Shown piece by piece: positions 18,819 to 19,016 of a stretch of DNA of 64,000 nucleotides. The stretch lies in IMG/VR virus record IMGVR_UViG_3300050194_000017, positions 25,722 to 89,721 of that record; one strand, given 5' to 3'. Positions within the stretch are counted from its first letter, which is position 1. Each line of letters starts with the position of its first letter. The translations under genes were made by a program, and so were the position numbers. Below the pieces are notes generated by a model. It saw only the letters and a list, made by a program, of their open reading frames with translations, searched no databases and was not told the origin of the DNA. This DNA comes from a virus.

Positions 18819-19016
18819 TTTTAGTAGGAAGTTGGCTTAAAGGCAGCCATCTTTTAAAGAGTGAAGCGAAGTACCTAAGTGCTACAGAGATCAAACAGAA
18901 ATACTAAGCGCATAGTTTTGTTTGATAGGGAGCGAGGACGCGATACGGATAGTGACGAAGCACCCCGTAACTGGTAAGGCAGGCTCCTTCTTTGGCGTAG
19001 CAGCACACTACTAAAA
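18819..19016 (+). ncRNA. RNA mimicking the 23S rRNA GTPase-associated centre (H43/H44, L11-binding domain), with a 132-nt structured insertion
   Basis: AGGAAGTTGGCTTAAAGGCAGCCATCTTTTAAAGAGTG (18826-18863) and CGTAGCAGCACACT (18996-19009) match 23S ~1054-1105; closed by TTTTAGTAG/CTACTAAAA. Confidence 0.75.

Follow-up and report, generated by a model that had tools for sequence, protein, structure and literature searches.

Among the translation components that phages carry are tRNAs and, in a few cases, ribosomal proteins. Do some phages also encode a copy of a functional center of the ribosomal RNA and, if so, what could such a copy be for? The question is raised by a locus in a 64,000-nt stretch of viral DNA (positions 25,722-89,721 of the IMG/VR record IMGVR_UViG_3300050194_000017; this whole stretch is hereinafter called the window, and coordinates refer to it). 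The plus strand of the window at positions 18819-19016 contains both halves of the GTPase-associated center (GAC) of 23S rRNA (E. coli positions 1055-1104); 132 nt separate the two halves, with the break between U1090 and G1091, and the whole is enclosed by a 9-bp stem of non-rRNA sequence. In the ribosome, the GAC domain binds uL11 and uL10-(bL12)4, contacts EF-G, EF-Tu and RelA, and is the thiostrepton site; A1067 and A1095 contact the factors and thiostrepton. We found no earlier account of a functional center of the ribosome being copied by a viral RNA, and we could not find the RNA family delineated here described in the literature, including, in a term search, the 2017 Weinberg catalogue of 224 RNA motifs.

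Anatomy of the element in the window

The rRNA resemblance was first noticed from the sequence alone, as a match of 32 of 38 positions at 18826-18863 to an E. coli 23S string, and a recount against that string indeed yields 6 differences. Searched against E. coli genomes, 18822-18866 matches annotated 23S rRNA and nothing else. A local scan with the Rfam LSU_rRNA_bacteria model aligned 18825-18877 to model positions 1094-1147, that is, the H42-H44 region (16.7 bits, E=0.008), in agreement with the placement proposed in the first-pass annotation. With as many as 3 mismatches allowed, a 28-nt core pattern has a single match in the window and none in 100 shuffles. Rfam LSU scans of the flanks detected no further rRNA-like sequence beside the element, as had been noted, and the record, a 97-kb viral contig that is ~44% complete, contains a single copy. 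When the whole window was scanned with Rfam 15 at gathering thresholds, only tRNAs reached threshold; permissive Rfam scans of three elements produced only local LSU matches of 17-21 bits (the LSU threshold is 50) and no named family. The single-sequence fold of the element has z = -1.84, which says little by itself. Its parts are as follows.

18819-18826, plus strand: 5' side of the closing stem, which takes the place of H42; forms 8 bp with 19009-19016
18827-18862, plus strand: 5' half of the GAC copy (E. coli G1055-U1090), reading GGAAGUUGGCUUAAAGGCAGCCAUCUUUUAAAGAGU; assigned from the Rfam LSU alignment, family counts and covariation
18829-18853, plus strand: H43 hairpin; the equivalent of A1067, at 18839, is A
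18854-18858, plus strand: 1082-1086 loop, inside the 5' half
18859-18862, plus strand: GAGU, the end of the 5' half
18863-18990, plus strand: inserted variable domain, 128 nt; boundaries from family covariation
18863-18866 (GAAG) with 18987-18990 (CUUC), plus strand: base stem of the insert; covaries in the family
18881-18891 with 18916-18926, plus strand: hairpin inside the insert
18960-18980, plus strand: conserved tetraloop hairpin, GCACC-CCG-[UAAC]-UGG-UAAGG-C, with a GNRA-like tetraloop at 18968-18971; from family covariation
18991-18994, plus strand: UUU-G linker from the insert to the H44 hairpin; conserved in the family
18995-19008, plus strand: 3' half of the GAC copy (G1091-C1104), reading GCGUAGCAGCACAC; contains the H44 hairpin GC-GUAGCA-GC
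19009-19016, plus strand: 3' strand of the closing stem, complementary to 18819-18826

The eight pairs of the closing stem are extended by a ninth, G18827-C19008, which brings the stem to the 9 bp originally proposed, and the GAC motif resumes after the insert at 18995-19008, also as proposed. The H44 hairpin, in which the equivalent of A1095 is an A at 18999, is followed by A1101 (pairs with U1090), C1102 (pairs with G1087), A1103 and C1104. The 132 nt that were initially assigned to the insert stand as the total length, which is now resolved into the 128-nt domain and the 4-nt UUU-R linker. One detail of the first-pass annotation did not hold up: the TACGG/CCGTA pairing inside the insert conflicts with the tetraloop hairpin at 18960-18980 and is disfavored because that hairpin module covaries in 27 of the 117 members of the family.

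Spread and conservation of the family

Pattern scans of IMG/VR with the 5' and 3' motifs identified at least about 196 loci, all with the same architecture. An exact-pattern scan for the 5' core accounted for 102 of these, and in each of the 102, the core is followed by an insert of 28-365 nt, then by YUUUR-GCGUANNAGCACAC, and then by sequence complementary to the 5' flank; true rRNA is not among these loci. The scan anchored on the 3' motif found at least 119 loci, at least 94 of them new and with more divergent 5' halves. Removal of duplicates left 117 non-redundant members, which is a lower bound. The survey of the motif with and without the insert, suggested in the first-pass annotation, thus had a one-sided outcome: the insert-bearing form is present in at least 117 non-redundant viral loci, whereas a pattern scan of viral contigs detected no uninterrupted GAC copy.

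The family is also represented in cultured phages. A blastn search of phage records located the 5' motif in two genomes, those of Xanthomonas phage XaC1 and Aeromonas phage 4_4572; in both, it lies in an intergenic region that has no annotation and is accompanied by the 3' half, a long insert and the complementary closing stem, and a second blastn search of phage records matched many cultured phages. We built a covariance model (R1) on 43 members with short inserts. Outside this training set, R1 scored Pseudomonas phage pf16 at 119 bits, Aeromonas 4_4572 at 96, Xanthomonas XacN1 at 91, Cronobacter GAP32 at 89 and XaC1 at 87, with exactly one copy in each of these 5 complete genomes. In the window, R1 recovers 18817-19018 with 121 bits, a score to be read in light of the fact that this sequence is part of the training alignment; the element contains the closing stem, the 5' GAC half, the insert with a covarying base stem, the UUU-R linker and the 3' GAC half that together define the R1 family.

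Among 185,579 prokaryote genomes, only ~10 mimic-type matches were found, in tRNA-rich MAG contigs and, in a single case, in a chromosomal tRNA array of Acidithiobacillus; all other matches were true rRNA variants. The chromosomal case (Acidithiobacillus sp. M4-SHS-6, NZ_CP175559.1, locus L112) is a full-length GAC mimic (77 bits) in an array of at least 14 tRNA genes, which suggests that the family also occurs in the tRNA arrays of integrated elements. The RNA family is conserved and covarying, and it is essentially restricted to phages and, rarely, other mobile elements. A match in Paenibacillus phage Pd_22F (L220, MZ092003.1, ~83.9-84.0 kb) was rejected as a mimic; it is a genuine, uninterrupted 23S sequence with native rRNA flanks, and this stretch of the phage record is contamination or captured host DNA.

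The secondary structure was assessed in an alignment of 43 sequences, with pairing that consisted of the rRNA-derived helices and the closing and insert stems. In this alignment, 93.4% of the cells hold standard pairs compared to 69.8% in shuffles, both sides change at 18 of the 24 pairs, and the covariation score is 0.612 compared to 0.16 in shuffles and 0.10-0.18 when partner columns are slid. The closing stem covaries across the family at all 9 pairs and shows no conserved sequence and no visible kink-turn. The H43 hairpin (1057-1081, 1058-1080, 1059-1079 and 1062-1064 with 1074-1076, enclosing a 9-nt loop with A1067) is paired in 100% of the cells, with compensatory changes at 4 of its 6 pairs: 1058-1080 occurs as all four Watson-Crick types, 1057-1081 as AU and CG, and 1062-1076 and 1064-1074 covary as well. 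All four pairs of the insert base stem covary, and the first three (i1-j1 to i3-j3) are 96-100% paired, with 4-6 pair types.

Positions fixed by a search pattern were assessed only in the set anchored on the other half, namely, 60 non-redundant members anchored on the 3' motif and 70 anchored on the 5' motif. In the former set, the 1082-1086 pair covaries (UA in 24, CG in 23 and AU in 10 of the 60). G1059, U1060, G1063, C1072, C1075, A1085, G1087 and U1090 are invariant in all 60 listed 3'-anchored members, and G1071, A1077, C1079, A1084, A1088 and G1089 are conserved in 59 of these 60. These are the nucleotides that we take, from the known GAC structures, to build the tertiary fold, in which U1060 presumably contacts A1088, and G1071 and C1072 the 1091-1100 and 1092-1099 pairs, with U1082-A1086 and A1085 completing the set. 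By analogy with the rRNA structures, the same tertiary contacts would be expected to form in the phage RNA. The loss of covariation at the tertiary contacts, a possibility raised in the first-pass annotation, is not seen, given the conservation of the nucleotides in 59-60 of the 60 members and the covariation of 1082-1086. The loop adenines are a different matter: A1067 and A1095 are both retained in the window, as had been claimed, but A1067 is replaced in 12 of the 60 listed 3'-anchored members and A1095 in 7 of the 70 5'-anchored ones, and positions 1095-1097 of the H44 loop are variable in the family.

The phage RNA thus combines a near-exact copy with several consistent departures. Like the bacterial 23S GAC (H42-H44, E. 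coli 1051-1108, which includes the 58-nt uL11/thiostrepton domain), to which it is nearly identical at the conserved positions of 1055-1090 and 1091-1104, it has the H43 and H44 hairpins, covariation at 1057-1081, 1058-1080 and 1082-1086, and the tertiary-contact nucleotides. Unlike the 23S GAC, it is free-standing, with a generic stem of ~9 bp in place of H42, and native H42 and domain II flanks are nowhere present; the flanks consist of the covarying generic stem and then tRNA genes or spacers. Furthermore, the phage RNA has an obligatory domain of 25-365 nt and the UUU-R linker between 1090 and 1091. The H44 hexaloop hairpin GC-GURNNA-GC is present, but a continuous H44 (1087-1102) is not, its 5' strand always being broken between 1090 and 1091. 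In the linker, U occurs in 67-69 of the 70 members at each of the first three positions, and the fourth is G in 56 and A in 14. Finally, the phage RNA has an A at 1101, paired with U1090 in 67 of the 70 members, where the rRNA consensus has U, and A1067 and A1095 are not invariant. Taken together, structural mimicry of the GAC by the element in the window and its family is strongly supported, and it is broader than could be seen from one sequence.

The insert is the variable part of the family, ranging from a bare hairpin of 25 nt to 365 nt, with no motif common to all members. A hairpin module, N-CACC-CCN-[UAAC/GAAA/GAGA/UAAU/UAAA]-N'GG-UAAGG-N', is present in 27 of the 117 non-redundant members, including the window, and both its closing pair and its outer N-N' pair covary in these 27. 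The UAAGG of the module lies 11 nt from the end of the insert in nearly all of the 27 (10-12 nt overall) and ends exactly 11 nt short of it in the window. A second recurrent module, a sarcin-ricin-like hairpin (AGUAC-GNRA-GGA, within a helix), is found in the large inserts of 3 of the 117 members (L023, L051 and L156), compared to a mean of 0.07 in shuffles; these three probably represent a single lineage given that they share one insert class, and the hairpin is absent from the insert of the window. In another contig (L199), a stand-alone sarcin-ricin-like hairpin is located at ~356-385, about 40 nt upstream of tRNA-Lys and 4.9 kb from the GAC mimic of that contig. Several members contain a second insertion of 22-37 nt, either after C1072 in the H43 loop (L177, L198, L205 and L206) or in the 1082-1086 loop (L179), so that the fold apparently tolerates at least three expansion sites. 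The family thereby provides natural variants of a classic model RNA, complete with the sites at which its fold can be expanded.

Genomic neighborhood and expression

The family is tightly linked to tRNA genes. Within 6 kb of 70 loci, there are 416 tRNA genes on the strand of the element and none on the opposite strand; in 42 of the 70 loci, a tRNA lies within 150 nt of the element, and many abut it at 2-10 nt. The copies in GAP32, XacN1 and XaC1 are located away from any tRNA. No protein family is a consistent neighbor, the largest cluster being present in only 11 of the 117 loci. In XacN1 (L221), the gene immediately upstream carries the annotation of an RNA-repair enzyme, 2'-5' RNA ligase; the association is seen in this one genome and is not conserved. 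No uL11 gene was found in the 5 complete isolate genomes that carry the element or in the partial record of the window. In the window, the element is preceded by the following features.

18478-18506, plus strand: sigma-70-like promoter, TTGACA-17-TAAAAT (11 of 12 positions; consensus match only)
18517-18602, plus strand: tRNA-Gly(UCC), upstream of the element
18613-18698, plus strand: tRNA-Cys(GCA), ~120 nt upstream of the element

The promoter-like sequence is a candidate start for a transcript that would carry tRNA-Gly, tRNA-Cys and the element. Between tRNA-Cys and the element, there is a small ORF (18713-18811, 32 codons) that encodes a hydrophobic peptide and has an AAAGG Shine-Dalgarno-like sequence. 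Directly downstream of the element, a perfect 16-bp inverted repeat (19023-19038 with 19193-19208) encloses a tRNA-like sequence (19110-19181) that scores 36.3 bits against Rfam tRNA (threshold 29) and is not called by ARAGORN. Just downstream of this RNA region, three consecutive genes (19417-21567) match TerC (E=2.6e-41), TerD and a vWA-TerF-like protein, which together make up a tellurite-resistance-type cassette. Elsewhere in the tRNA array of this phage, a tRNA with a CUA anticodon (14043-14119), labeled 'Pyl' by ARAGORN, is a candidate amber suppressor. A 104-nt Rfam tRNA match (8979-9082, 62 bits) that is missing from the ARAGORN list might be a tRNA with an intron or an unusually long insertion.

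The sequence of the window element is present in 24 DNA runs; the phage itself was found only in leaf-litter DNA runs and in no RNA run. For a widespread freshwater homolog (L008), the phage-specific insert is covered by contigs assembled from the metatranscriptomes of four freshwater studies, and one of these RNA-library contigs ends at the 3' end of the element. Some stretches of the flanks of this homolog are left uncovered by all four runs; its 36-nt core reaches very high depth because true rRNA maps across. These RNA-library contigs support expression of the family, with the qualification that assembled contigs prove neither transcription nor RNA ends.

Structured RNAs in or near phage tRNA clusters have precedents. 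The T4 species 1 and 2 RNAs (rnaC and rnaD) are small, stable RNAs with no assigned function that are encoded within the phage tRNA cluster, on the tRNA strand, and, according to their annotation, are released together with the tRNAs. They were rejected as homologs of the GAC mimic: the best R1 hit in T4 at 68-76 kb has 6 bits (E=1.7), and no GAC motif is present in their sequences. ROOL and GOLLD, likewise structured, phage-associated, often adjoining tRNAs and functionally unassigned, are much larger than the GAC mimic and do not imitate rRNA, and their Rfam models have no match in the window. ROOL and GOLLD are reported to form RNA-only multimers (10.1101/2024.12.08.627333).

Possible roles of the GAC copy

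What the phage RNA retains and what it relaxes provide a clue to its role. Conservation is strict in the tertiary core and looser at the loop adenines, and the stem in the place of H42 is generic, so that an off-ribosome site for host uL11 is the most economical reading. The sequence pattern points to selection for the shape that is recognized by uL11. Because no phage-encoded uL11 was found in the 5 complete genomes or the partial record, any uL11 partner would be that of the host. The interpretation that we favor, and in which we place about as much belief as doubt, is that a stable RNA processed from a tRNA transcript mimics the GAC and acts as a decoy or sponge for the ligands of the ribosomal factor-binding site, most likely host uL11. 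The element would be transcribed together with the phage tRNA array and probably cut out by tRNA-processing enzymes, which is suggested by the ends of the closing stem often lying 2-10 nt from a tRNA. Its two ends would then come together in a free-standing copy of the GAC, with H43, H44, the junction and the generic stem in H42's place, from which the variable domain would branch out of H44, always between U1090 and G1091. Host uL11 would be the most likely ligand of such an RNA, with uL10-(bL12)n and translational GTPases as possible further ones. The case for uL10 is uncertain, and weaker than that for L11, because the H42-like stem has no conserved sequence; the capture of factors as a family-wide function is weakened by the replacement of A1067 and A1095, each in roughly 10% of the members. 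Physiologically, the outcome might be, for example, a weakened response of RelA or a change in how the stalk proteins are used. What speaks against a decoy of this kind is that a sponge would be in competition with ribosome-bound uL11 and would have only one infection cycle in which to act.

A bolder version, which we offer tentatively, is that large phages encode a replica of the factor site, comprising the GAC and, in some lineages, a sarcin-ricin-like loop, that would bring host uL11 and uL10-bL12 together in an off-ribosome 'stalk' particle, which would capture translational GTPases or RelA, or absorb toxins directed at the GAC. If true, an rRNA functional center would for the first time be known to have a viral mimic, and viruses would have a new route to the control of translation. 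Given the spread of the family across about 200 viral contigs from many habitats, including well-studied cultured phages (pf16, GAP32, XacN1 and Aeromonas 4_4572), and the strong selection on the GAC fold in this phage RNA family, the questions that arise are what a phage gains from an off-ribosome uL11/GTPase site, whether the stringent response or the stalk is manipulated, and whether there are GAC-directed toxins or defenses to be countered.

The last of these questions leads to a serious rival of the uL11 sponge, although one that we consider unlikely, namely, that the free RNA is a decoy substrate that absorbs a toxin, a defense or toxin-antitoxin nuclease or an antibiotic hitting the host GAC, so that translation is kept running for the phage. 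The sarcin-ricin loop is a classic toxin target, and the presence of a similar hairpin in three of the 117 inserts is in line with such a role; these hairpins, however, probably come from one lineage, and the window element lacks them. They would fit a factor-site replica under the uL11-sponge or the toxin-decoy reading. One view of phage tRNA arrays is that they make up for tRNAs lost to host defenses, and the location of the element in these arrays therefore fits a 'spare parts or decoy' role. We know of no anti-phage defense system directed at the GAC, which weakens the case for a toxin decoy, and so does the variation of the H44 loop at 1095-1097 across the family. A toxin that attacks the GAC does exist, namely Tre23, an ADP-ribosyltransferase that modifies H44 at 1095-1098 and impairs EF-G in its GTPase activity (PMC8661411).

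The other explanations are less likely than the uL11 sponge. One, which appears improbable, is that the GAC module, perhaps with uL11 bound, is only a stable platform and that the insert carries a lineage-specific function. The presence of an insert in every member and the recurrent sub-modules within the inserts (the tetraloop hairpin in 27 and the sarcin-ricin-like hairpin in 3 of the 117) are what such an arrangement would predict, but inserts range down to a bare 25-nt hairpin and up to 365 nt, with no universal motif, and a generic platform would need none of the selection that is apparent on the GAC copy, including the tertiary-contact nucleotides.

Even harder to reconcile with the data, and accordingly given very little credence, is a cis-acting element, either a ribosomal-protein leader similar to that of rplJ or a spacer or processing signal in a tRNA operon. 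The location inside tRNA operons, often abutting tRNAs, would suit such an element, and there is a precedent for the imitation of rRNA in that bacterial L10 leaders imitate the same rRNA region. These ribosomal-protein leaders (for instance, the rplJ L10 leader, RF00557) resemble the phage element in being off-ribosome RNAs that mimic the stalk base of 23S rRNA, a mimicry that in the leaders serves the binding of a ribosomal protein. However, leaders of the L10 type are cellular and cis-regulatory, are located upstream of the gene for the bound protein and resemble rRNA only loosely, whereas the phage element is viral, has no associated ribosomal-protein gene, is a near-exact copy and resides in tRNA arrays. 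The Rfam leader families have no match to the window element, there is no conserved downstream gene, and uL11 is not encoded in the 5 complete carrier genomes. The copies in GAP32, XacN1 and XaC1, away from tRNAs, are not expected of a tRNA-operon signal, and a processing signal would not need near-identity to the GAC.

The notion that the element is a non-functional captured scrap of rRNA or an assembly contaminant, for which the occurrence of true rRNA in phage records, such as the 23S sequence in Pd_22F, could be cited, is vanishingly improbable and is already contradicted by covariation and the family-wide architecture: the flanks are non-rRNA, covariation is seen in the closing stem, about 200 loci from unrelated phages have the insert at exactly the same point, the U1090-A1101 signature differs from rRNA, and the element is present as one copy per genome, always on the strand of the tRNAs, with its sequence recovered in 24 DNA runs.
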